DNA of 64,000 nt from Somniosus microcephalus (Eukaryota): positions 29,326,001 through 29,390,000 of the forward strand of contig CM126230.1 in assembly GCA_052327205.1 (NCBI GenBank), read 5' to 3'. This document shows, piece by piece, positions 3,751 through 63,740 of this stretch. Every line of letters begins with the position of its first letter. Within the stretch, counting starts at the first letter, position 1. The notes beneath the pieces were generated by a model. The model did not search any database, was not told the origin of the DNA, and worked only from the letters and a program-made list of their open reading frames with translations. Both the position numbers and the translations under genes were made by a program.

Positions 3751-4055
3751 TGTGGCGGAGACCACATAGGGACAATAACACAATATATAGCCAATGTTGT
3801 TATATGTACCTAAACACAATTCACTATGTATAGCAATGTTGTTATATGTACGTACTGGGTTGGGTTATCGGTGCAGGGTCCCTTTAAGAGTGTCGGTAGC
3901 GTGATGACGTCATGACGTCGGTTGCGTGATGACGTCATAGCCCCTGCAACGGGGCTGAGACCTTCAGTCCTGGTGGAGAGTGAATAAAGTAAGACACATT
4001 TTGCCTTTGCTGCAACAAAAGTCTCAGAGCCTGTTGATTTCTATCGACCCCAACA
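3751..4055 (+). repeat. 5' LTR (305 bp) of CsRn1-clade element
   Basis: Direct repeat of 7875-8162; AATAAA at 3983-3988; TGACGTCA at 3905 and 3930. Confidence 0.95.
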
Positions 4056-4056
4056 T

Positions 4057-4067
4057 TGGTGACCCCG
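4057..4067 (+). promoter_or_regulatory. Primer-binding site, tRNA-Trp
   Basis: TGGTGACCCCG 1 nt after the LTR, complementary to the tRNA-Trp 3' end ...CGGGGTCACCA (tRNA sequence from memory). Confidence 0.85.
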
Positions 4068-4103
4068 CTGCTCTTTTGGACGATTCCAAAGACCTCATCC
4101 GAA

Positions 4104-7100
4104 ATGGCGACGAACGCCGTTTCCATCAAATTACCCAAGTTTTGGGAACAACAGGCTGTCGCTTGGTTCGCCCAGGCCGAGACTCAATTTGCACTCCGGG
4201 ACATCACCGCGGACGACACGAGGTACTACTACGTCGTCTCTGCTCTCGGCAGCTCCACCGCGGCCAGAGTCATGAGCCTGCTCGAGAACCCCCAAGAGCT
4301 CAACAAATATGAAACGCTGAAAACGCACCTCTTAGAGACTTTCGGACTCACCGAAGCCAAGCGCGCACGCCGGCTTCTCTCTCTACCCGGGCTTGGCGAC
4401 TCCAAGCCCTCGGAGCTGATGGACCACATGCTGGCCCTCCTGGGCACACACAGGCCGTGCTTCCTCTTCAAGGAACTGTTCCTTCAACAGCTGCCAGGTC
4501 AGGTATGGTCGGCTTTAGCCAACTCTTCCACTACCGATTTCCACGACCTGGCCAAGGAGGCCGACAAATTTTTCTCCGCCGGGCAACAGTACTGCGCGGC
4601 CACACGGAGCCCTGCCCCCACCGATACAGCCCAACGGCGGCAGCCCCCAAGCCTCTGCTTCTACCACGCGCAGTTCGGCCCCAAAGCCAGGAAGTGCCGG
4701 CCCCCGTGCAGTTTTCCCGCATCAAAACAAACGAAAGACCACTCGTCGGCTGCTATGGCTGTCGGCCGTTCAGGCAGTTTGTTATTTATTACAGACACCG
4801 ACTCCAGACGTCATTTTCTTTGCGACACGGGTGCCCAGGTAAGCGTCCTGCCCGCGTCAACCATAGACATTCAAGGGGGGAAACCACGGCCCCGTCCTCG
4901 AAGCCGCCAACGGCAGTTCCATCCGCACCTTCGGGAAACGGAACGTGGCGCTTTTTTGTTTTGGCGGGCAGCGGTTCACCTGGGACTTCGTCACGGCAAA
5001 AGTGTCCACCCCCCTTCTCGGCGCTGACTTCCTCTGTGCCAATGGCCTTTTGGTGGACGTCAAGAACTGACGTCTCATCAATGCTGAGACTTTCAGCTCG
5101 CTCCCGTGTTCCCTCAGCAGGTCCTGCACGACGCACTTGTCCAGCGCACTCTCGACCTCCGACGAGTTTTCCCGCCTCCTCGCCGAGTTCCCGGACCTCA
5201 TGAAGCCCACATTTTCGTCCGCCGCCACCAAACACGGGGTAGAACACCACATCTCGACCACCGGTCCACCCGTCTACGCCCGCGCTCGGCGCCTCGACCC
5301 GAGGAAACTCTCCATCGCTAAAGCCGAGTTCGACACCAAGGAGCGCCTCGGCATCATCCACTGGTTGAACAGTCCGTGGGCATCGCCCCGAAACCAGGCG
5401 GCGGGTGGTGCCCGTGCGGCGATTACCGGCGCCTCAATGACACGACGACCCCCGACCGCTACCCGATTCCACACATCCAGGACTTTTCCACCCGCCTGGC
5501 CGGGAAAGTGGAATTATTGAAAGTGGACCTCGTCCGGGGTTTCCACCAGGTCCCTGTCCGACCGCAGGATGTCCCGAAAACCGCGGTGATCACCCCGTTC
5601 GGGCTGTTCGAATTCCTCCGCATGCCATTTGGCCTCAAAAATGCCGCCCAGGCTTTTCAACACCTAATGGACGCCATGTTACAGGACCTGACATTCCTGT
5701 TCGTATACCTGGACGACATCCTCATCGCCAGCACCTCCAGGACGGAGCATGTGTCCCACCTCCAGACTCTCTTCGAATGCCTCAGCCAGCATGGCCTAAT
5801 CGTCAACCCGGCCAAGTGCCAGTTCGGGCTGTCCTCGATCGATTTTCTCGGGCACTGCATCACGAAGGACAGGGCAGTGCCACTGCCATCGAAAGTGGAG
5901 GTCGTGATGGACTTCCCGCGACCCCTCACCGTGAAGGCCCTGCAGGAGTTTTTGGGCATGGTGAACTTTTACCGTCGCTTCGTCCCCCGAGCAGCCCAGC
6001 TTATGCGGCCCCTTTATGAGGCCCTCAAAGGCAAGCCCGACAAGCTCACCGTCGACTGGTCCGAGGAGATGGCCAATTCTTTCACGGACACGAAAAGGGC
6101 CCTGGTTAATGCGACAATGCTGGCGCATCCGTTACCTGATGCGCCGATCACTCTCACCACCGATGCCTTGGACTATGCGGTCGGCGCTGTCCACAAACAG
6201 TGGGTCAATGGCACCTAGCAGCCGCTCGCCGCCTTCAGCCGGCAGCTCTGCCCCAACGAGCGGAAGTACAGCACCTTCAATCGCGAGCTTCTCGGCCTCT
6301 ACCTCGCCGTCCGACACTTCTGTTTCCTGCTGGAGGCCCGCCCGTTCATGGCGTTCGTGGACCGCAAGCCGTTGACCTTCGCCATGGCCAAAGCTTCCGA
6401 GCCGTGGTCGGCCCGTCAGCAACGCCAGCTGGCCTTCATCTCAGAGTTTACAACAGACATCCAGCATGTGACTGGGAAAGACAACCCCGTCGCAGACTGT
6501 CTCTCCCGAGCCGTCGCCAGCGCCGTGCACCTCGGCATCGACTACACCCGCATGGCGGTCGACCAGGCCTCCGACCCGGACGTCCAGGCCTACAGGACGG
6601 CGGTCACGGGCCTTCAACTAGCGGACGTCGCGTTCGACGATGCCGGCACCACACTCCTGTGCGACGTCTCCGTTGGGCAGCCACGTCCCGTTGTGCCCGA
6701 CGGGTGGAGACGGCAAGTTTTCGACGCCGTCCATAATCTTTCCCACCCGGGCAGGAAGTCGTCACAGAAGCTGGTGGCGGCTAAGTTCGTCTGGCACGGG
6801 CTTAGGAAAGACATTCGCGACTGGGCCAGCACCTGCGTGGTATGCCAACGCTCGATAGTGCATTGCCATACTTTCGCGGTGCCCGAGAGGCGGTTCGACC
6901 ATGTTAACGTAGACCTGGTGGGGCCCCTGCTGCCCTCCCGCGGGTTCACCCACCTCCTCACAATGGTCGACAGAACCACCCGATGGCCGGAAGCCGTCCC
7001 GCTGTCTTCACCGACGGCCGCCGATGTGGCTCGGGCGTTCATCAACACTTGGGTCGCCCGGTTCGGCGCCCCATCTGACGTCTCCTCCGACCGGGGCCCC

Positions 7101-7937
7101 CAGTTCACGTCAGAGCTCTGGAACACTGTCGCCCGAGGCCTCGGGTTGAGACTCCACCGCACCACAGCATACCACCCTCAGGCTAACGGACTGTGCGAAC
7201 GGTTTCATCGCTCCATGAAGGCCACGCTCCGGGCCAGCCTCCGGGATGACAGCTGGATCGACAGACTCCCATGGGTTATGCTGGGACTCAGGACCGCTCC
7301 CAAGGAGGACCTCCAGTCCTCGTCCGCCGAACTCGTCTACGGACAGCCGCTGCGGGTTCCCGGGGATTTTGTCCCCAACGCAACGGAACCTTGGTCCGCA
7401 GCCCGTCAGTGGTCCGACCTTCTGGACAATGCCAAGGTTTTCGCACCGGCGTCCACATCGCAGCACGGCCTCCCGCAGTCCCACGTTCTGCTCGCCCTTC
7501 GTGCGGCGGAGCACGTTTTCGTCCGCCATGACGCCCACCGGGGACCTCTTCAGCCACCCTACGATGGACCATTCCGCGTCCTGGAAACCGGGGACAAGAC
7601 CTTCGTAGTGGATGTCGGCGGTAAGCCGGACTGCATTTCCGTGGACCGTCTTAAGCCGGCCCACCTGGATCTGGACCGACCCATTGAGTTGGCACAGCCC
7701 CCGAGGCGGGGCCGACCTCCGGTTTCCGCACCCTCAGTCCGCCACCGAGCACCCGAGGTCCCTCCGATGAACCCCCGCAGTCCCCGCCCCGGAATCGAGG
7801 AGCTGTTCCGACCGTGTGATCCGGCCCCCCCAACGACTGACATTGCCAGTGCTAGTGAATTCTGGGGGGACGTATGTGGCGGAGACCACATAGGGACAAT
7901 AACACAATGTATAGCCAATGTTGTTATATGTACCTAA
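4104..7937 (+). pseudogene. gag-pol of CsRn1-clade element with frameshifts and stops
   Basis: Gag AVSIKLPKFW...CFYHAQFGPKARKCRPPC; protease FLCDTGAQVS; RT YLDD; RNase H TTDALDYAVG; integrase HNLSHPG..CVVC, DDE core, PPYDGPF. Frameshifts near 4880 and 5385; stops at 5068-5070 and 6216-6218. Confidence 0.9.
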
Positions 7938-8162
7938 ATACAATTCACTATGAGTAGCAATGTTGTTATCTGTACATACTGGGTTGGGTTATCGGTGCAG
8001 GGTTCCTTTAAGAGCGTTGATAGCGTGATGATGTGATGACGTCATAGCCCCTGCAACGGGGCTGAGACCTTCAGTCCTCGTGGAGAGAGAATAAAGTAAG
8101 ACACGTTTTGCCTTTGCTGCAACAAAAGTCTCAGAGCCTGTTGATTTCTATCGACCCCAACA
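7875..8162 (+). repeat. 3' LTR (288 bp) of CsRn1-clade element
   Basis: Matches 5' LTR with about 13-14 substitutions and a 17-bp indel (counted by eye); preceded by G-rich tract 7864-7870. Confidence 0.95.
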
Positions 8163-9035: not shown

Positions 9036-9182
9036 CTAAGACTCTCGGAACATACTGCACCACAATGGTGCTCAGACACCGTTCAGTGCCCATGATTCCG
9101 AACACAAGGACCTCTTGATTTCAGTAATGGTACCATGAGCATCAAGTAACAGGAGCAAGCTCCCAGGGTATATCATGTCTAG

Positions 9183-9525
9183 AAAAAAAAGAAAGAACTT
9201 GGATTTATATCCTGCCTTTCACAATGTGAGGACGGCCCAAAGCGCTTTACAGCCAAGTAAGTATTTTTGAAACGTAATCACTGTTATAACGTAGGAAACG
9301 CACAGTTTGCGCCAATTTATGCACAGCAAGCTCCCACAAACAGCAATTAAATAAATGACCAGATCATCTGTTTTAAGGTGTTGGTTGAGGGATAAATATT
9401 GGCTGGGACACCGGGAGAGCTCACCGGCACTGCTTCAAATAGTGCCGTGGGATCTTTTACATCCACCTGAGAGGGTAGACAGTGCCTCAACTTAATGTCT
9501 CATCCGAAAGAAGGCACCTCCAACA
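9183..9525 (-). mobile_element. DeuSINE (SacSINE1-like), 5' truncated
   Basis: Same Deu domain and tail as 11088-11520 and 45574-46049. Confidence 0.8.
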
Positions 9526-11087
9526 TCATTGTTCTGGCTGTTAGGCTATCCTGGAAAATGTATGATTTTTTTTTTCTTTTGCTGCTTGTTTTGAATTGCG
9601 ATGTCTGAATGCAGAAAATCCATTCCTTTATATTTAGAAACATGAATGCTATTTGTCGTCAGGATGTAATTTAACAAAGAAAACATTTGAATTGGCTCCT
9701 GTGGTCTCTTTAGAACTGGGATATTCTTCTGTGATGTTGAATTTATCCACTCCCAATGCTGTGAGATCAGGATGGTGAATTTTATGGAGCAGATGCAGAT
9801 TTCCAGTTGATAAATTAGTATAATGTATGCATTTTCCAATGAACTATAAAAGCTGAATTTTATAACTGCCATTAGTCTTGGCACTAGTGTGACGCTAATA
9901 ATGATTGTGGGTGATTATCTTTTTAGATTTTTACAAAATATGAGAGATTGCACCAACATGATCTTTTTATTGCCCCCAGGCAAGAGTGCGTGCATTCCTG
10001 ATTTTTGGATGACAGAGTGAAATATGTCTGTCAATAAACCCCATAATGGTTGTGTGTTGGACCCGGTGTAATGAAAGAGCACAGAATGGATCATTATTTG
10101 ATGGTGTTGAACTATTGCTAAGCTGTTTTTAGAGTTATCACAAATGGAGTACAATTCTGTCCTTTGCCTGATAAGGTGCGACATATTTCAGTTCATAGTG
10201 TAGGTGGTTTCACCATATGTAAGCCACTTATTTGTGGATTTAGATGTTTTGAACCCCATATTGGTTCCTCATGGTGGTTTGAGCAATAATTGTTTAAGGC
10301 GGCCAAAACAAAGTTATGCAGGTCACAAAAAGTCTTTTGGAAAATATAGCCCTGGGAAAAGAGATGGACAGCATGCCTGTGGAGATATGACAGAAACGTT
10401 CAAGTTTTATTTTGGCTTAAAAATTGCTACATATTTGTAACTGGAAAGGGAATGTTGCAAATATCATTTGTATTAAAAACAGAATTGAGTAATGAGTTCA
10501 TGATGTTACAGTTAGGCTCAGAGTGTGGAGATTTGACCGCTTAGTCTCGAACACTAAGATGAGTGTTTCTAATTTGCTCTCTTTTCCCCTTCACAAATAA
10601 AGATGGTACCTCCCGCTGGGGTAACATTCCACGGGCACCATGGTAATCACCCATGTGTGATCCTGGACATCAGCAGGCTAATGAACTGAGGAGCCATCAC
10701 AGTTAAGTTTGATCCTGTCCAGACTATTGCATGGTCTAGCAGGATTCACTGGATAGTGATCAGAAGTGGAACTCTGTGTGACTTGTTTTTCTCTTCCGTA
10801 CTCCAGACTCTAAAGCCAGCTGTAAAGCTTCCATCGCTGACTGGACAGAGATTAGATAACTCCGTGAAGAGCAGGGAGCAAATGTGGCACGTTCCTGTTA
10901 TGTTTATCTCCGTGACATACTGCGTGATGTATTTACTCATTGCCGATCAGGGATCTGGAGTTTATGGAAAATAAACCAATGAATGGCTAGGTTGAGTAGC
11001 AGTGAATGAGTTATGTTGGTCACAAGCAGTTTGTTTTCCCTAATTCACCAGGCCCCCAAGATCTATTTCTACAACATTTCTGAATTA

Positions 11088-11520
11088 GAAAGAAAGACTT
11101 GCATTTCTATAGCGCCTTTCACGACCACCGGACGTCTCAAAGCGCTTTACAGCCAATGAAGTACTTTTGGAGTGTAGTCACTGTTGCAATGCGGGAAACG
11201 CGGCAGCCAATTTGCGCACAGCAAGCTCCCACAAACAGCAATGTGCTAATGACCAGATAATCTGTTTTTGTTATATTGGTTGAGGGATAAATGTTGGCTA
11301 GGACATCAAAATAGTGCCATGGGATCTTTTACGTCCACCTGAGAGAGCAGACGTTTAGCGTCTCATCCGAAAGATGGCACCTCCGACAGTGCAGTGCTCC
11401 CTCAGTACTGCACTGGAGTGTCAACCTAGCTTTATGTGCTCAAGTCCCTGGAGTGGGACTTGAACCCACAACCTTCTGACTCAGAGGCGAGGGTGCTGCC
11501 CACTGAACCACAGCTGACAC
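11088..11520 (-). mobile_element. DeuSINE (SacSINE1-like), near full length
   Basis: tRNA-like head with B box GGTTCAAGTCC, Deu domain CAGGTGGACGTAAAAGATCCCATGGCACTA, tail AATGCAAGTCTTTCTTT. Confidence 0.85.
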
Positions 11521-14184: not shown

Positions 14185-14395
14185 CTATATTATTTATATA
14201 ATATACCTATATCTGTATATATCTATATACCTGTATCTGTATATCTATATACCTATATCTGTATTGTATCTGTATATCTATATACCTATATCTGTATTGT
14301 ATCTGTATATCTATATACCTATATCTGTATTATATCTATATATCTACATATATACAATATATATACATACACCTATATATGTATATATATCTCAT
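14185..14395. repeat. TATATC/TA-based tandem repeat
   Basis: Repeated ~33-bp unit TATACCTATATCTGTATTGTATCTGTATATCTA grading into (TA)n. Confidence 0.85.
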
Positions 14396-17033: not shown

Positions 17034-17854
17034 AGGCTGTATTTTGTCAATGGGGACGTGATGGAGGCGGGACTCCCACTTTTTGGGTTGCAGTCCCGCC
17101 TCCATCGATTTGTGGCCAACCCACGCGATTTTCCCTTGATTGACCTTGTTGAGCCCGCCCAGCGGGCTCAGCTGGCCAATTAAGGGACACCCGGTTACAG
17201 ATGACGTCAGGGATTGACATTTCATCTGTCAAGAGCTTTTGACAGATGAAATATCAGCGTTTGACAGCTCTGTGAAGTTGTCAAACACTGACAATCTGAC
17301 TTCTAACTTGAGTCCTTCTCCACAGACTCGGTTAGAAATCTCTCCAGAACAGAAAGCTGAATGTTGCAACTTTTGACAGCTCGCAGCCATTCTGCTTTCT
17401 GTGCCGGTGAGATGAGGGACTCCTGAGACCTGAAGGAAGGAAGCCTGCATTAGTAAGTAAAGGTAAGTAAAACTTCTTTAAACACTTTACACACACCAAA
17501 CACACTTACCTCTGCACTCATGCACCCATCACTCACCTGAACACCGGACATCTCGAACCCTCCAAGCCCTTCAGCCCGACGGTCTGCCTCGCTAACTTGG
17601 CGTGGTTCGGAGCCGTCGGGCAGCCCACACTTCAGGGCTAAAAATAGGGATTAGGCCAAAAACTGCCTGTTAACTACCTGTTAACAGGCAGTTAATTGGC
17701 ACTAATCTCCTTCCCACCTCGGGGAGGCGGCTCCCAGCACAGGTCGGGTACCCGCCTCCTGGGAAACGGGCATGGAGGCGGGAAGGGTTCGTGCCCCCCG
17801 ATTCTGCAATTTTCCCCCCACTCCCGCATCCACGGGGCTTGGAAATTCAAGCCC
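17034..17854 (+). mobile_element. Non-autonomous Harbinger-type element, family A
   Basis: 3-bp TSD CAC (17031-17033, 17855-17857); internal palindrome AACTGCCTGTTAAC...GTTAACAGGCAGTT. Confidence 0.8.
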
Positions 17855-24497: not shown

Positions 24498-24987
24498 GGG
24501 GGGATTTTTCCCAGCCCTGGGGAGCCGGGAAAATGGCAGAAACTGGGAGCGGGTACCGAACCCGCTCCCAACCCGCCCCCGTGCCATCTTCCTGGGAGGC
24601 AGGTCCCCGAGTCGCGCAGGGACCCGTCTCTCGAGCGGGAAAGGGATTACAGCCATTTAACTGCCTGTTAACATGTAGTTAACAGGCAGTTAAAGAGGAT
24701 TATCCCCATTTTACCCACACAAGTGCGGGCTTCCCGACGGCTGCGAACCTCGCCAGGGTCAGCGAGGCGAGCAGTGAGTCTGTGGGTGTGAGAGGGATCG
24801 AAAAGTCCGCTGTGAAGGTGAGTGATAGGTGCAAGTGTGGAGAGGTAAGTATGAGAGGTGAGTGTAAAGTGTTAGAAAAAGTTTCCTTACCTTTGTTTCT
24901 TCCTGCAGGCTTCAACCCTTGGGCTTCAGAAAACCTGAAAACCAGCAGTCCTGCCCCCAATGCGCCCCCATTGACAAAATCCAGCCC
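24498..24987 (-). mobile_element. Non-autonomous Harbinger-type element, family A (internally deleted)
   Basis: TSD TAT (24495-24497, 24988-24990); reverse complement of 1124-1845 termini and right half. Confidence 0.8.
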
Positions 24988-31478: not shown

Positions 31479-32163
31479 TATGTTTGACAACTCTCCAGGA
31501 TTGTCCTGGAGTCTCCCGGAATGAAAGATTAATCTCCAGGACACTGCTACGGGCAACCCGTATTCATTTTCTGTGAACATTTATTAGTTATAAAAAGGCT
31601 GTTTGACTGACGGTCAAGCATCATCCAATTAAGAGCCTGTTTGCTTTCCAATTGCCAAGGGAAAGCGGAGTGCGCGAGGATGGATGGGTTGGGAGACCCG
31701 GGTTGGGAGACTGATGTTGGGAGACCCCAGGGTTGGGAGACCCCAGGGTTGGGAGACCAGGGTTGGGAGACCCCAGGGTTGGGACATCAGAGTTGGGAGA
31801 CCCCAGGGTTGGGAGACCCCAGGGTTGGGAGACCAATGTTGGGAGACCAGGGTTGGGAGACTGATGTTGGGAGACCCCAGGGTTGGGAGACTAATGTTGG
31901 GAGACCCCAGGGTTGGGAGACCCATGTTGGGAGACCCCAGGGTTGGGAGATCAATGTTGGGAGACCTCAGGGTTGGGAGACCCCAGGGTTGGGAGATCGA
32001 TGTTGGGAGACCCCAGGGTTGGGAGATCGATGTTGGGAGACCCCAGGGTTGGGACACCAGGGTTGGGAGACCGATGGCGGGAACGTGTGGGCGGAGCAGT
32101 TGGCGGCAGGAGGTTGTGAGAGGAAACCTCCAGGAATGTGTCCAACAAGAGTTGGCAGCCCTA
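31479..32163. mobile_element. hAT-type MITE containing an expanded minisatellite
   Basis: 8-bp TSD ATAGTGAC/ATAGTGAG; ends TATGTTTGACAAC / GTTGGCAGCCCTA; homologous to 19596-19871. Confidence 0.8.
31686..32072 (+). repeat. G-rich minisatellite, 14-16-bp units GGGTTGGGAGACC(CC)A / TGTTGGGAGA
   Basis: Roughly 25 tandem units read directly. Confidence 0.95.
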
Positions 32164-33323: not shown

Positions 33324-33425
33324 CAACAGTGACTACACTTCAAAAGTACTTCCCTGGCTGTAAAGCACTTTGGGACATCGTGAGGCTGTGAAAGGTGCTA
33401 TATAAATGCAAGTCTTTCTTCTTTC
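33324..33425 (+). mobile_element. DeuSINE 3' tail fragment
   Basis: CAACAGTGACTACACTTCAAAAGTAC...TATAAATGCAAGTCTTTCTT. Confidence 0.75.
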
Positions 33426-43932: not shown

Positions 43933-44110
43933 AAAAGACTTGAGTTTATACGGTGCTTTTCACAGCCTCAGGACATCCTAAAAGTGTTTTACAACCAATT
44001 AAGTACTTTTGAAGTGTAGTCACTGTTATAATGTAGGAAACACTGTTGTAATGCAGCCAATTTGTGCACAGCAAGCTCCCACAAACAGCAATGTGATAAT
44101 GACCAGATAA
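43933..44110 (-). mobile_element. DeuSINE 3' part
   Basis: GCAGCCAATTTGTGCACAGCAAGCTCCCACAAACAGC as in the other copies. Confidence 0.75.
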
Positions 44111-44294
44111 TATAAGAAAATACAACAGGTAGAGTACAGTGTGTTGTAGCCAAAATCCATCTGTGATCATATTAATCTGGATCATTATTTTTTCACCTGG
44201 CGCGAAGTATGTCTTTCCCTCTCCCCTCCCCACAGAAACATCCTGATTGTGTCCTTAGAACAATTTCCAAAGTTTTTTTTTGGATTAACAGACT

Positions 44295-45573: not shown

Positions 45574-46049
45574 AAAAGAAAGAAAGAAATACTTGCATTT
45601 ATATAGTGCCATTCACGACCTCAGGACATCCGAAAGCACTTTACAACCATTGAAGTACTTTTGAAGTGCAGTCACTGTTGTAATGTAGGAAACGCGGCAG
45701 CCAATTTGTGCACAGCAAGCTCCCACAAACAGCAATGAGTTAATGACCAGCTAATTTTTTTTTAGTGATGTTGGTTGAAGGATAAATATTGGGCAGGACA
45801 TTGGGAAGAACTCCCCTGCTCTTCTTTGAAATAGTGCCATGCGATCTTTTATATCCACCTGAGGGGGCAGACAGGGCCTGAGTTTAACGTCTCAACTGAA
45901 AGACGGCACCTCTGGCAGTGCAGCACTCCTTCAGTACTGCACTGGAGTGACGGCCTAGATTTTGTGCTCAAGGCTCTGGAGTGGGACTTGAACCCACAAC
46001 CTTCTGACTCAGAGGTGAGAGTGCTACCCACTGAGCCACAGCTGACACA
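45574..46049 (-). mobile_element. DeuSINE (SacSINE1-like), full length
   Basis: Head TGTCAGCTGTGGCTCAGTGG with B box, Deu domain, (TTTC)n tail. Confidence 0.85.
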
Positions 46050-47270: not shown

Positions 47271-50036
47271 TACATTTGTACAGGCACCAAGGGCTCTTTA
47301 GTATCTTGACCATTGGCAATCCATCCGGTTTGAGCTCGACAGTGAATGTTGCTCTGCTGATCAACTGCAGTGGGCATCATGGCCAAGCCTCATCCTAAAA
47401 TGATCTGAGTTCCCTGGCATAGGTCGCTGGATTGAAATTGGGATCCTGGCTGAATTCTTTTTATCCCCCCGCCACTTTCCTATCCCAAGACTCTGAAGCA
47501 CTTCTACCGCCAGGTCAACGCAGACTAGCAATTGACCCCATGACCTTTGTGGCCTGACCAGTGCCATATCACACAGGGTGGTGATTTTACCAAGAGAGCA
47601 ATCGGGGAAGCCATTTCCACCATTGTAACCAAAGCTAGATGTATTCCTTTGTTTACGCACCACTATTGTACTGTAAATGGGTTTCTGTGGAAAGTAAGCC
47701 TTAAAATGTTACCATATGCTTGTATTATATGAATTTTTCTTTGCAGTACTTCGCAGTAGCTTTATAACTGTTCAATAAAGGCCGTTTGCTTTGAAGAGTA
47801 TATAAACGAGATTGGATTTCTGCCTTATTTCCTGTCGACAGTGCTGTGTGGAAATTCTTCCACAAAATCCTACAGGGCATCAAAGACAGGAATAAGGTGG
47901 AAACACAATCCATTGTGTGCCTCGAGAAGTTCACCTTCCGTACATGTCCAGTTCACTTTCAGTACACGCACGGGTCACCTTCAGTACACATACATTATAG
48001 CTAGCGCGCACAAAAATACACTGGGCAAAGTTGGGGTGGGGGAGGGGCGCGGGTGGCGGTGTGGAATGTTTTCCTGGGTGTGAAAGATTCATAACCGCTG
48101 AATAATAAAGTCCATCCACCATTTCCAGCCCAGTCTGATGCTGCTTCTGTCTTTCTGTTTGTCTCCTTTTAAGAAGCCAATTGTTTGAAATGTTGCACAG
48201 TGCGAGGTAAACTTTACTGGCCCGCTCCTCTGTCTACAGGCCACTGCTCTGAGTGTTAATAACGAGCTCACAGACACCCACAAACAGACCTTATTATTTT
48301 TTCACAGGCACAATTGTTTCACTTTCAATGCAACAAAATAACATTCTGCTGTTGAGAAATTGTTACAAGTAGAAAGTTGAATTTGGACTGTCTGTTAATT
48401 GCGAAAGCGTGGAATTGTATTTGAAAGCTGAGATAACGATTTATTACTACAGAAGGATCAATTGCCTCAAATTATAGAACAACTGGACTAAAACAGCACA
48501 ATATGGTCATTGTACAGTGTGAAGTAAATAACAATAGCATCTCTACATACTGCCGTAGGATCTTCAATTCAGAGAGCTCACGAGGCGAACAAACACCTAT
48601 GCTTATCACCCGTTGTGGAAAATTACTAGCAGTTAGGAGTTTTCATAGGCACAGTGCTGAACATGCCCCCGGGCAGTGTTGCTTCACTGATGGAGATGCA
48701 TCTACTGCAGCATAGTGCATGTTGCGCCGTGTTTAACATTAAACTGGCCTGGAGCTCTATTTCAGTTTGTCTTGAGTTTAAATGCAAACACTGAAAAGCT
48801 TGCTGGAAACAATGACATTTATTCACATTATCAGTCGCCACGAGGGTCTTTGAGGGAGACTGTTATTTCTTCCGCGTATACAGGAAGCAACTGCCCCCTG
48901 GAGGTGAAGGTTGCTTATAATGAAGAGCGTGTGATTGTGGCTGTGCTCTGACAATGTCCAGTTATGGATTATCTGAAGCTGGCTTTGTTACAGGATCAGC
49001 GCTGTTCAAAACTTGGCTCCATGCACTGGCAGTTCTATGATGATTTAACTTAAATATACTAGTTAGGAGTAAAATAAACCTTGTGTGGTCTTCGTGGCTG
49101 TCTTACATCAATAATTATCTCCTGAAAGTCAAGATTACGATGCGTTAAAATATATATAGAGAGAGAGAGAGACAAAGTGGTTATACACAGCAAGCTAAAC
49201 TAGTGCTGCAATATAGTGATGATTCAGTAACTTGTATTACAAACGGAAAAAGCGACAAGACATATCAATATAAATAAACTACCCTGAAAATCTGCCAGAT
49301 TATAAAAACACAGGATTAAGTAGACTTGGTTTAACAAGTCACTGTTGCATTGTATATGTTATGAACAATGTCATGTGCATATCCAGGCTCCAATCTATGT
49401 TTTTCCTTACAACCCACACACATCACTTTTGAAAAACCAGGAAATTAATACTCATTTTACAGACCATTCACATTTCAGCTTGTCCTGCAATACATCCAAA
49501 TCTAATAAAAACAGTGATATAATAGTCCACCGTGTGTTTGATGGAAAGTAAACCTTTATTCTTTGCAGGAGGTTCAAACATCTGTTCAGCTCCAGAAGAA
49601 TTAAAAGTGAGGTTTATCTCTTTATTTTAGGTAGAATACAATTGCAAATATTTAGACCGGTTTCACTTAAAAGAAAAAAAACTGTCTCCATCATTTTCCT
49701 TTCTGAGATTAACAGCACAATTAACAGCTCAGTTATAAATCCTGTAATGCTTTCAAACCGTTTCGACTGCCAAACACCTCTTAAATAGCTACTAAAAATG
49801 AGACACTAACAGGACATGATCTCCAACTACACTATCCCCCAGAAGTCAATAAATGTCCACACTGCGTTCCACTTTAATCCCCATTACAGTCCATGGGCTT
49901 AGTTCTATCCAAGAATTTAAGTTATTGTGTATAAATTTAACACTATTTGATTTTCCTAATTATATTTTGAGTGTACCTGATTAATGTAAACTTAACTCAT
50001 ATACAACATGTACAGTGTGTGTGTGTAAGTAAGGAG

Positions 50037-50293
50037 TGTTGTGTATGTAATATGTGTGCTACTTTGAACCTATGGACAGGACTGCACTACTTGTTGGGCG
50101 TAGTGATACGCAGTACCACTCCTGGCCATAGGGGTATAAATAGTACTGTGGGTACTGATCTCCCCTCAGTTCCCGCCTGTGGGCATGAAGTAAAGACCTA
50201 TGTATAGTCCCTACCTCTAACCAGTAAAGACCTGTTTTATTGTTACTGATTAAGTCTGAGTATTAATTACTTGAACAACTCACAGATTTAACA
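50037..50293 (+). repeat. 5' LTR
   Basis: Identical to 53366-53622; TATAAATA 50135-50142; AGTAAA at 50189 and 50223. Confidence 0.95.
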
Positions 50294-50294
50294 C

Positions 50295-50304
50295 TGGCGA
50301 CGAG
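50295..50304 (+). promoter_or_regulatory. Primer-binding site, tRNA-Ser
   Basis: TGGCGACGAG, complementary to the tRNA-Ser(GCT) 3' end ...CTCGTCGCCA (from memory); typical of Mag elements. Confidence 0.85.
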
Positions 50305-50856
50305 TCTGATTCGGACCCTGCGGCAGTCACTCCACGGCAGCTTCGTCCACAGCCAGGACGTTGCAGAGAGGTTTCCACCCTCTCCACCCCACTGGAAGAC
50401 ATCCTGACCTCGGAGCCTCCATCGGCGACCGTCAGCTTCTTCTCCAGCTTGGTGGTGGGTAAGCCGTTGTCTGAGCCGGGCAGCGACGCGACAGGCAGTC
50501 GACCGCGTTGGCCGCACGAACGGGGCTGGGGGAGCTGGAGGAATAGGGCGCGAGAGCCGCTTCGAGCGGGAGGCGTTTCAACAGAGCGATCGCATCTCCT
50601 GATAAGAGCCGAGAGCCGCTTCGCGATCCAGCGATCGCATCCGCTGATAAGGGCCGCACTCGGGCGATCGCAGCGAAGATAAGGGCCGCACTCGGGGGCT
50701 GAAGGGAGACGGCGTTGGGGGACGGGTGAAGACCGCCAAGCGCGGGAAAACCGCCATTTTGTGGGCGGAGGACGACGGCAAGAGCGGGAAGCCGCCATCT
50801 TGGATAGCAGTAAAAAAAATAAAATCTGAGAAATTGCAAATCTGATAAGTACTACA

Positions 50857-53049
50857 ATGCCTAAACACGGGAATATTAGCAACTTTGATAGTGACATCGA
50901 AGATTGGGCCATATATGTTGAACGAGTTAAAAATTATTGTAAGGCCAATAAAATTCATGAGGCTGATAAAGCACTAACATTATTAAATTTAATGGGTGCG
51001 AAGACATACGGGCAATTGAAACACCTGTTATCACCAGATGAACCGGCGGATAAGACGTTCGATGAGATTGTTACTGTCCTGAAAGATCATCTAAACCCCA
51101 CGCCGCTGATGCTAGCGGAACGATTTAAATTTTACGACAGAAGGCAGCTACAGCATGAAAGCAATGCTGATTATTTGCTGGAATTGCGTAAATTAGCGAA
51201 ATATTGCCAGTTTGGAACGGGACTGACAGAGGCACTTCGAGACAAATTTGTGTGTGGTTTATTTAAACAGGATACACAAAAGCGACTGCTCGAGGAGAAT
51301 GAGCTGACGCTTGAGAAGGCGGTCACTATGGCAGCAGCACACGAAGCCGCAGCGAGAGGCACGGCAGTAATGCAGCTACGGTCACCGGAGCTCAGTGCAC
51401 ACAAATTGGGTGTGAGTTCTGGCAAATGTTATCGTTGTGGAAAGACAACGCATGATCAGAACCAGTGTTGGGTTAAAAACCAAGAATGTAGAACTTGTGG
51501 TAGGCTTGGACATATAGCTAGAGTATGCAGGTCAGCGAAGAAGACCAGCAACAAGAAGTCACCGCAAGGAAAATACGCAAAGGTACACAAGGTGACCGAA
51601 CAGGAGTCCGATTCAGACGCTAGCAGTAATGAACTGGCTAGCTTAAGAGTACTCAACGCTGGTAAGGGTGCAGACCGCCAGACAATTTGGGTCACTCTTC
51701 AGATAGAAGGAGTCCAAGTAAAACTGGAATTGGACACTGGATCGGCATTGACGGTCATAAATAAGAAAGATTACGGAAAGTTATTCCAACATATTCCCCT
51801 ACAGGATACGGGGATTATATTGGAAACATACACGGGGCAAAGAGTGTACCCCATCGGGAAAATAGAGGTTGCAGTGGTCCACAAGGGCGAAGACAGTCAA
51901 ATAATGGACTTATATGTGATATCTGAAGGAGGTCCTCCACTACTAGGACGGGAGTGGATTAGGAAAATGAATATGGACTGGCATTTCCTACAAACAATAA
52001 CGAGTGAGAACTCGGTGAAGATAGTCGGCCCAGACTCTGGAACGGATGATGGTAAGCCCAACTCAGGTGCAAAAGACAAAGTTTCAGCACAGAATTCCAC
52101 TGAGCAACAACAACATAGTTTAACTGTGGATTCTGAGTCTGGCAAGTCTACTGATGTGCCCATTTCTGAGGGACACCGGGCTCGAACTCAACTCCATTTC
52201 AAACTACAACAGCAATTAGAACAAATGCTTCGCCGTTGTGAGCAAGAGTTGAATGCAACGAAAGAGTTCTTTGATATAGAGTTGGAGAATCTGGAAAGAC
52301 AACAGAAGCAGCTGATGGAGAAAATGGAGCAGGAGCACACAAAACGTCTGATGTCAGAGGAGTTAACGGTCAGCCAACTCCTGCATATGCTGAAGGACAG
52401 GACTCTGAAATGGGAAAAACTTGAACACGAACTTCAATATTCAAAGGAAAGGGGTTCGGAGCTATCAAAGGTTATTGGAAGAGCTGAGGTGGCAACACAG
52501 ACTGAGATGACTGCAACAGAGCAGCCCTTGGATGCCAAAAGTACGCTGACTCACGTCAACGTAGAACAACAGACCGCTGAAACAGCTGCTCCGGTAGAGG
52601 GATTGAATAGTCCGATCAATCAATCTCCAAAAGAAGTTGAAGTAGTAAAATCTCAAATGAGGTCATTAGTAAACGACTTGCTGAAAGCCCAGAAAAAGCT
52701 GGATGAAGAGGTACGCATGAAGAAGTCTCTTCAGGAAAGATGTCTGGACTTGGAACAAAAGCTGGCTAACGCCCAGCTGGGTATGGAGGAAATAGAAGAC
52801 CCTCTCGCTGGCCTAGATCAGGACGACACCGAATATTACTATGTCCTGTCCTGCCCAACTTGTAACTTCGACTCCCACCATACAGAAATCATGGAGGAGC
52901 ACCGAAAGTCTACGGAACATCGGGAGAAGGTGGCTCTACTACGGAAAAAGGAGGGAGAGAAGGAGGAACTGCGCATGCAGCTGGCAGCTGACAGTGGAGC
53001 CCAGAGAGTCTCCAAGAAGCAGAAAAGGAAAAGTCGAAACAGAAGATGA
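50857..53049 (+). CDS. 730-aa Gag-protease fused to STK10/SLK-like and optineurin-like coiled coils, a U1-type zinc finger and a basic tail
   Basis: Mag Gag ([19 protein letters not shown]), two CCHC knuckles 51427-51528, protease DTG 51733-51741 and LLGREW; host-like segments 52168-52350 and 52357-52764; CxxC-x12-H-x5-H 52852-52920. Confidence 0.92.
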
Positions 53050-53352
53050 CCCATCTGAACCATTATTACCTCTACCAGATCACACACGTGGTCCCTCCGA
53101 ACGGAGCCAATTCAGTTCGGAAGTTCAAACTGTTAAATCCATGGAAGGACTATTGAATGAGTCACTCCAGCAACGTGAACCGACTCCACCACAGAGATTG
53201 AATCTGTGAACTGTTTTCCGCAGAGACTGAATCTGTGATCTGTTTTGACATGAAGTTATCTATGTATCTATGTTATTCTGTTATGTAAACCTGAAGTTAT
53301 ATATGTATATATGTTATTACGTTATGTTAAATGGGGAGATGACTGTAAAGCT

Positions 53353-53365
53353 AGGAAGGGAGGAA
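53353..53365 (+). promoter_or_regulatory. Polypurine tract
   Basis: AGGAAGGGAGGAA abutting the 3' LTR. Confidence 0.9.
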
Positions 53366-53622
53366 TGTTGTGTATGTAATATGTGTGCTACTTTGAACCT
53401 ATGGACAGGACTGCACTACTTGTTGGGCGTAGTGATACGCAGTACCACTCCTGGCCATAGGGGTATAAATAGTACTGTGGGTACTGATCTCCCCTCAGTT
53501 CCCGCCTGTGGGCATGAAGTAAAGACCTATGTATAGTCCCTACCTCTAACCAGTAAAGACCTGTTTTATTGTTACTGATTAAGTCTGAGTATTAATTACT
53601 TGAACAACTCACAGATTTAACA
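53366..53622 (+). repeat. 3' LTR
   Basis: Identical to 50037-50293. Confidence 0.95.
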
Positions 53623-53737
53623 AGGAGATGGGGCAAAATTAGTATATGTTAATACTATCTAGGAGGCCTGTTTGCTTAAATCCAAATAGAGGTTTTTACT
53701 TTCAAGCCTTGATGAATTGCAGCATTTTTTAAATCCA

Positions 53738-62904: not shown

Positions 62905-63740
62905 GGCCTCGATTTTAACTGACCCGTGGAGTCGGGATTGGAGGTGTGTGGGGGGGTTAAAGTCCCGAATTCGGGTGTCCCGACACCATCCCGCCCCCAA
63001 CCCGCCTCCATGTAAGTTTCAAAGGAGGCGGGTACCCGCCCCGCACTGGGACCCGCCTACCCGAGGCGGGAAGGGATTAGTGACAATTAACTGCCTGTTA
63101 ACAGGTAGTTAACAGGCAGTTTTTAGCCAAATCCCTATTTTAAAGCTTGAAGTGTGGGATTCCCGACGGCGCCAAACCATGCCAAGTTAGAGTTGTCGGG
63201 TTGAAGGACTTGGAGGGGTCGAGATGTCGGTGTTCAGGTGAGTGATGGGTGCATGAGTGCAAAGGTAAGTGTGTTTGGTGTGTCTAAAGTGTGTAAAGAA
63301 GTTTAAATTACCTGTACTTACCTTTACAGCCTTCCTTCTTCTAGGTTTCGGGAGTCCATCATCTAACCAGCAGAGAAAGCAGAATGGCTGCGAACTGTCA
63401 AAAGTGACAGCCTGCAGCTTTCTGTGCCAGAGAGATTTCTAACTGAGTCTGTGTAGAAGGACTTGGGTTAGAAGTAAGACTGTCAGTATTTGACAGCTTC
63501 AAACAGCTGTGAAACACTGATATTTCATCTGTCAAAACATCTTGACAGATGAAATTTCAGTCTGTGACGTCACCTGTTGCCGGGTGGCCCTTAATTGGCC
63601 TGCTGAGCCCGCTGGGCGGGCTTAACAAGGTCAATCAAGTTAAAATCACGTGGATTGGCTGCATCTCAATGGAGGCAGGACTACAACCCCGAATGTTGTC
63701 GTCCCGCCTCCTTCCCGACTTCTGAGTGAAAATCACCCCC
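62905..63740 (-). mobile_element. Non-autonomous Harbinger-type element, family A
   Basis: TSD TAT (62902-62904, 63741-63743); reverse complement of 17034-17854. Confidence 0.8.

Follow-up and report, generated by a model that had tools for sequence, protein, structure and literature searches.

A non-autonomous Ty3/Gypsy family in a shark genome with a host-derived tail assembled by successive captures from STK10, optineurin and DNAJC21

The window, a stretch of 64,000 nucleotides from Somniosus microcephalus (assembly GCA_052327205.1, contig CM126230.1, forward-strand positions 29,326,001 to 29,390,000), harbours an LTR element spanning 50037-53622 with a single ORF that joins Gag and protease to a host-derived extension (Table 1). 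The 5-nt target duplication lies within the 4-6 nt expected of Ty3/Gypsy elements, the PBS-like site begins with TGG at 50295 and the polypurine tract precedes the 3' LTR; no tRNA genes were found in the 64,000-nt window. The Gag-protease is 48% identical to P0124, which has RT, RNase H and integrase zinc domains, and autonomous relatives in the same genome share 64-71% DNA identity with the element. The Pfam gag-asp_proteas profile scores above cut-off in two of three sister copies. Neither RT, RNase H nor integrase gave a Pfam match in the ORF, a pol query had no match in the element, and a PDB sequence search returned the CCHC knuckles only.

Table 1. Features of the element, in positions of the window.
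Feature	Position	Strand	Basis or remark
Left target-site duplication AGGAG	50032..50036	.	sequence; repeated at 53623-53627
5' LTR, TG...CA, 257 nt	50037..50293	+	no mismatch to 3' LTR over 256 positions compared
Primer-binding-site-like TGGCGACGAG	50295..50304	+	directly 3' of 5' LTR here and in most other copies examined
Single 730-aa ORF: Gag, protease, host-derived extension	50857..53049	+	without RT, RNase H, integrase
Gag, two CCHC knuckles (aa 191, 211)	50857..51636	+	Pfam zf-CCHC below cut-off; 33-48% identity to Gypsy polyproteins
Aspartic protease, DTG motif at aa 293	51685..51999	+	Pfam gag-asp_proteas weak here
Two pieces of STK10 exon 9 around a 69-nt in-frame deletion	52002..52172	+	88%, 86% DNA identity; protein match
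STK10 exon 11 3' part spliced to exon 12 5' part, start of PKK coiled coil	52168..52349	+	93%, 91% DNA identity
Optineurin middle region, four spliced exons, native frame	52342..52793	+	59-62% aa identity to shark optineurin; 80-93% DNA identity to host exons on C17
18-nt STK10 exon 8 remnant, downstream of exon 12 sequence (permuted order)	52783..52800	+	18/18 identical, E=0.009 alone
C2H2 finger (C666, C669, H682, H688), helix and basic tail, DNAJC21-derived	52801..53030	+	protein similarity via sister copy L070
STK10 exon 8 end and exon 9 start, mostly 3' untranslated here	53041..53161	+	86-92% DNA identity
Integrase C-terminal tail remnant, end approximate	53162..53210	+	resembles family A tail, read in frame in copy L024, and autonomous relatives' tails
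Polypurine tract	53353..53365	+	sequence
3' LTR	53366..53622	+	sequence
Right target-site duplication AGGAG	53623..53627	.	sequence

The element belongs to a young, large non-autonomous Ty3/Gypsy LTR family with Gag and protease only. The ORF is intact in all of the 19 nearest other copies, a set selected for closeness; the 40 copies scored among 2,371 candidates all match over 2.6 kb at 99-100%. The 61 residues encoded by the STK10 segment are unchanged in 150 of 150 scored copies (of 16,204 candidates; candidate counts from genome searches are not copy numbers). On C1 lie 55 of these 150, which scaled to the genome gives about 760 copies. A search of the genome for the parent returned only captured copies, and neither the direct parent nor the helper of the window's family was found in it. 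Four copies of the family stand in tandem at 3,368-nt spacing (C3:263216090-263226376). In copy L024 the frame continues via the exon 8-9 remnant to the integrase tail, giving 283 residues after the segment versus 232. Elsewhere in the window, 3751-8162 holds another Gypsy element, more distantly related, whose RT, RNase H and integrase frames are broken and whose LTR-like repeats are 93-98% alike. Tandem repeats occur at 31637-32101 and 14198-14388 (14/16-nt spacing and an AT-rich repeat). A SINE-like repeat is present at 9182-9366, 11082-11269, 33324-33424, 43934-44111 and 45576-45763, its copies being 73-87% alike, and other dispersed repeats lie at 1325-1801, 17035-17787, 24524-24986 and 62990-63717.

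The original prediction placed a captured coiled-coil segment of STK10 (LOK) or SLK at 52168-52350 (+), and translation of the window gives exactly these 61 codons. The segment matches the Pfam PKK profile with E=1.7e-9 (38.4 bits against a curated cut-off of 25), and of this profile only positions 1-49 of 139 are present in the ORF. Its best database relative is a shark STK10 (82% amino-acid identity over 100% of the query). Among the 120 relatives listed of 306, those with names are STK10, STK10-like or generic kinases and none is named SLK. The kinase domain had been described as missing, and the Pfam search of the ORF indeed gave no kinase match.

At the nucleotide level, 52168-52255 is 93% identical to one exon of the host STK10 gene, which lies on C8, and 52255-52349 is 91% identical to the next; the intron is gone from the joint at 52254/52255 (exon numbers are working labels). 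The segment hence crosses a spliced exon junction. The linker before it (51994-52167), proposed as possibly of the same gene, is STK10 too: 52002-52172 derives from exon 9, at 86-88% DNA identity in two pieces around the 69-nt deletion. With the further pieces at 52783-52800 and 53041-53161, the limits first drawn for the capture were too narrow. The donor is the host genome's own STK10 gene, to which sister copies of the element are 99% identical and whose exons 8-12 encode a product 94% identical to Pristiophorus STK10; this likeness puts the host within the squalomorphs. Coiled coils can align spuriously, and the optineurin N-terminus did align over the PKK part, but DNA identity to host STK10 exons (86-93% in the window, 99% in family A, with splice junctions), the relatives listed and an alignment score of 289 against a maximum of 29 in 200 shuffles rule out SLK or compositional similarity, and make a donor of another species extremely improbable. 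The genome holds two more STK10/SLK-like genes, at C8:2305443-2421308, with a kinase exon within an 823-codon open frame, and at C30:27434027-27468564. The host STK10 gene itself has a GC splice donor at the end of exon 10 (C8:167193684).

The structure of the first capture is preserved in sister copies. We compared 12 loci of a family A with 10 of 67 listed optineurin-bearing copies (families B and C); the window's own family is termed D. Family A consists of Gag-protease, an STK10 insert and an integrase tail, all in one frame. In 12 of 12 copies, which descend from one event, the insert is a single ungapped block of 1,259 nt with 1,244-1,249 positions identical to the host (99%); 8 differences are fixed in the family. 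It begins inside exon 9, runs through exons 9-12 joined at splice sites to exons 8-9, and ends 14 nt past its own start. Exons 8-12 amount to 1,245 nt, or 415 codons with no stop over two turns, and the insert is therefore 1,245 + 14 nt long. A mismatch shared at the third base of the overlap sets its length at 11-14 nt. At the joint, exon 12 ends with the base before the host's GT, and exon 8 follows with the first base after the host's AG. A 201-nt probe across this joint was matched in full by 40 of 40 scored copies (among 1,214 candidates). In the window, optineurin sequence has replaced the exon 12/8 joint, leaving just the permuted order. The remnant at 53041-53161 stops at the presumed point of exit from the circle, which is the host base at which the family A insert ends too.

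The permuted exon order together with the exact donor-to-acceptor joint indicates that the template was most likely a circular RNA and not an mRNA. Of the earlier proposal of capture from mRNA by template switching, the capture of a spliced host RNA into an LTR element stands, and the linear template most likely does not. A tandem exon duplication in host STK10 was considered and rejected, as exons 8-12 each occur once in 100 kb. We regard derivation of the insert from a circular RNA as highly probable. In Ty3 RT the distance between the polymerase site and the RNase H site is given as about 13 bp (PMC5371799), and circRNAs are reported to be packaged by retroviral particles (bioRxiv 10.64898/2026.01.21.700838). 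The agreement of the 11-14 nt overlap with the RT distance could be chance. A linear source, i.e. an exon-repeating or trans-spliced transcript or two switches on mRNA, is very unlikely. Non-colinear joints do have other possible origins (PMC4897178), and the back-splice joint is not among the 15 listed of 127 joints in the RNA data, where host STK10 RNA is scarce. However, two switches on mRNA would miss the exact donor and acceptor, and on a linear repeat entry and exit would meet within 14 of 1,245 nt in about 1-2% of cases by chance (our own arithmetic). The host gene moreover has no tandem exon duplication, and the outside exons 7, 13 and 14 or 40-nt intron flanks occur in 0 of 62 element loci.

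Downstream of the STK10 segment the tail continues with pieces of other host genes, which brings the captured genes to apparently three, STK10, optineurin and DNAJC21, the first two matched at the DNA level. The place of the 18-nt exon 8 remnant between the optineurin and finger pieces agrees with families B and C. The finger segment of sister copy L070 matches DNAJC21 (best E=1.3e-14) and scores above cut-off for Pfam zf-C2H2_jaz, a profile without a match to the window's copy. The window's segment aligns to L070 with 53% and to shark DNAJC21 with 45% identity, and its spacing C-x2-C-x12-H-x5-H is of the DNAJC21 type (JAZ/matrin-like). A structural model of the finger is beta-beta-alpha with pLDDT 90-95 over aa 21-60, calculated with an alignment made of DNAJC21 relatives; in a fold search this model had no match at E<=0.001, the best being a U1 snRNP chain (E=0.92). 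Since matching host exons were not located, the DNAJC21 capture is deduced from protein similarity: exons beyond the fourth were not found within 200 kb downstream, a stretch holding 1,000 N. DNAJC21 exons 1-4 are present at C1:2460001-2675274.

The optineurin capture in family B starts 8 nt inside one exon and stops about 5 nt before the end of the sixth (C17:85879057-85890333). Being near whole exons at both ends, it may also have come from a circle. The assembled host optineurin (C17:85884655-85885539 and 85890140-85890195) has one exon base more than the element copies, which breaks the spliced frame; the extra base is either an assembly error or a change of the host gene. Host optineurin also differs at a TQT-like motif that is common to the element copies and several other sharks.

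Families related to the window's show how the tail was built up. A search of the genome with whole STK10 found residues 385-701 intronless in 47 of 47 scored copies (of 44,970 candidates), and in 46 further rows of this search residues from 290 follow directly behind 385-701. In family B (7 loci) a deletion runs from exon 9 to exon 11, and where family A has the exon 12/8 joint there are six optineurin exons. In family C (3 loci) the DNAJC21 finger is added inside exon 8, and its last DNAJC21 piece is in another frame, yet open. The window's family D carries further in-frame deletions, and a family D' (5 of the 20 loci found with the 61-residue segment) has an intermediate finger. Counted over the element families, nine junctions or deletions keep the native frame. 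The nested structure of the families shows the order of captures, namely STK10, then optineurin, then DNAJC21. Microhomology of 4-9 nt is present at five host-to-host junctions.

The element portions have a less simple history. Over 65-86 nt the tails of families B and C share 84-97% identity with an autonomous family, from which these integrase tails were taken. In trees, the Gag-protease branch of the window is 0.28 from an unresolved A/B/C node and the STK10 pieces about 0.10. As Gag-protease has changed about three times as much as the cassette, the history includes recombination. Together with the B and C tails, these unequal branches make the history of the element reticulate. An origin of the window's Gag-protease from an earlier-branching sister family was rejected, because the tree places it on a long branch leaving the node from which A, B and C also arise. 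Gag-Pol relatives (L053, L059, L061, L080, L094) lie in and around the host STK10 and DNAJC21 genes. The integrase tail of one such Gag-Pol family is shared with families B and C, and the family C protease is closer to L053 than the family A protease is.

We then compared rates of substitution along the ORF, with dN/dS values taken from pairwise counts on short segments and uncorrected for multiple testing. Gag (0.21-0.26) and protease (0.18-0.30) are both conserved between the window and families A, B and C. The optineurin piece has a dN/dS of 0.34-0.43 against sister families, with confidence intervals below 1 in all five comparisons, and 0.39-0.59 against the host, with an interval reaching 1.10 at kappa 4. 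It is under purifying selection with a dN/dS of about 0.4. The STK10 piece is indistinguishable from neutral evolution: values against sister families are 0.59-0.92 with intervals spanning 1 in 7 of 7 comparisons, and the value against the host is 0.50 (CI 0.23-1.09). The DNAJC21 piece has a dN/dS of 2.1-3.0, with a lower bound of 0.91-1.37 depending on kappa (0.91 at kappa 1) and with three of 67 codons at a frame difference. In the finger core 18 of 29 residues are changed while all four ligands are kept (P=0.024). Between D and D' the finger shows 14-15 amino-acid changes and 1 synonymous change in 85 codons; as the STK10 segment was the probe that found D', the absence of STK10 changes between the two is biased. 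Replacement of the finger by a patch in one step is unlikely: there are intermediates, and of 11 unchanged codons only 1 differs. With 112 random changes on 329 codons, the probability that no stop arises is 0.006. Protein-level selection acts on the optineurin and finger parts of the tail.

To assess expression, two RNA runs (24% and 31% read) and two contig sets were mapped to the host STK10 gene at 86% likeness. The runs were chosen by species label and are possibly from a species other than the window's. Element-type joints are present in this RNA. The joint of the 69-nt deletion, which among the families examined occurs in family D only, is covered by 129 and 30 reads, and the main row for the exon 9-to-11 deletion by 148 and 117 reads. 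Most first mates of the X6 run lie on the strand expected for sense RNA. Exon 10, to which only host RNA and family A contribute, has a depth of 0.2 and 1.9 compared to 384 and 173 for exon 11, demonstrating that the derived families are transcribed far above host STK10 in these runs. From bin depth in the two runs, element RNA amounts to about 90 to more than 1,000 times host STK10 RNA.

These data bear on the function of the tail. Our preferred reading, which we put forward tentatively, is that the tail serves the element: a coiled-coil stalk, a predicted finger of RNA-binding type and a basic end would take the place of Pol in assembling particles or handling RNA. The STK10 piece may belong to the stalk or be a tolerated relic that keeps the frame. 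It is unlikely that the tail is filler, kept open only because an early stop would create a long 3' UTR and reduce RNA stability or co-translational packaging, with amino acids, those of STK10 included, that do little. The STK10 ratios of 0.50-0.92 with intervals spanning 1 fit such a role, as do the repeated cutting and overwriting of the cassette, the open last DNAJC21 piece of family C in spite of its other frame, and the loss of an LIR-like motif in the window's family. Against it stand the optineurin dN/dS below 1 and a finger in which dN exceeds dS with the ligands kept; moreover, the window's family spread despite a stop about 320 nt before the 3' LTR.

That the tail works as a decoy to counter host control is, in our view, quite unlikely. 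In such a role the coiled coils of STK10 and of optineurin, which is an autophagy receptor, would bind the host proteins or their partners in autophagy or innate signalling, the fast-evolving finger marking a conflict with a host factor. The high finger dN/dS with its stepwise intermediates and the excess of element RNA over host STK10 RNA are consistent with this. The LIR-like motif, which we take to be the optineurin LIR, is present in 9 of 10 B and C loci but in 0 of 20 loci of the window's family, and the N-terminal and ubiquitin-binding parts of optineurin occur in no copy examined. Only 49 of 139 PKK positions are left, and the two RNA runs contain hardly any host STK10 RNA. A dominant-negative STK10 fragment, one of the roles suggested in the original prediction, loses ground on the same scarce host expression, on the loss of the LIR-like motif and on the retention of only a third of the PKK profile. 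A dimerisation role, also suggested there, is at most a possibility for a segment whose dN/dS is compatible with neutrality.

Returning to a tail that serves the element, we consider the following overall explanation the best account, with a probability of roughly 60%: RT, RNase H and integrase of a Ty3/Gypsy element would have been lost to host coding sequence through serial template switches inside the particle. In a first step the reverse transcriptase would have jumped from the integrase tail onto a co-packaged STK10 circle (exons 8-12, 1,245 nt), copied one turn and run off at its own first RNase H cut, 11-14 nt past the landing point, to end back on the element just after the protease. 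For this step the structure is observed, and the mechanism is what we infer from it. Spliced optineurin RNA would then have taken the place of the back-splice region, and the DNAJC21 finger would have been inserted into the exon 8 piece, before in-frame deletions trimmed the cassette to the form seen in the window. The resulting Gag-protease-tail protein would be made by translation of the element ORF, with RT and integrase presumably borrowed from an autonomous relative, so that the element would depend on a helper.

A wider proposal is possible, though we hold it doubtful: stop-free circRNAs might offer LTR elements ready in-frame cassettes, captured as one turn plus the RT-to-RNase H distance. 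The STK10 cassette would have served as a scaffold for optineurin and DNAJC21, with the finger under positive selection, and a new, abundantly expressed host-derived protein might raise the spread of the element, possibly in conflict with host autophagy or RNA surveillance. As the intermediates of three successive in-frame captures are kept as families, the assembly of a chimeric protein and the selection on it can be traced stepwise. In practical terms, the many intronless fragments of STK10, optineurin and DNAJC21 can pass for gene-family expansions, and in read counts and circRNA calls element RNA will drown the signal of the genuine genes.

The element resembles several known systems. In retroviral oncogene transduction, gag is fused to host coding sequence in a replication-defective, helper-dependent gag-onc virus. 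Unlike these viruses, the shark element has no env, carries non-catalytic fragments, has spread in the germ line and probably drew on a circular donor. Our literature search, in which subscription journals were scarcely covered, turned up no description of the element and none of a capture spanning one turn, nor any report of such a cassette being both translated in frame and amplified. Capture of several genes by LTR elements (PMC5131818) and LTR-flanked circRNA copies in mouse (PMC4897178) are already known. Maize Bs1, as reported in PMC5131818, likewise carries pieces of three unlinked host genes in an LTR element with a hybrid ORF; it is described there with 1-5 copies and one piece out of frame, in contrast to the shark element, in which all three pieces are in native frame behind Gag-protease, the family is large and young, and one donor was apparently circular.

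Closest in process is LTR-mediated retroposition in animals (Tan et al. 2016, PMC5131818), where host RNA is described as replacing part of the ORFs between the LTRs. The likeness extends to microhomology at switch points, multi-gene chimeras in sense and often in-frame orientation, and further rounds as a non-autonomous element. Compared to the cases presented there, the shark element differs in that its first donor is a permuted full turn, its intermediates survive as families and it has reached many hundreds of copies or more; the word 'circular' is absent from the main text of that paper. Finally, the mouse circRFWD2-derived pseudogenes (Dong et al. 2016, PMC4897178) share a back-splice joint fixed in DNA. 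They comprise 33-42 copies with LTR (MMERVK10C-int) sequence beside them, and are described as pseudogenes of a mechanism called mysterious. As presented in that account, they come without a measure of one turn plus overlap, an in-frame Gag-protease fusion, later captures or selection. The write-back of circRNAs into genomes was left open there (PMC4897178), and the overlap of 11-14 nt beyond one full turn, seen in all 12 family A copies, provides a template-switch/RNase H model for it that is testable in vitro.
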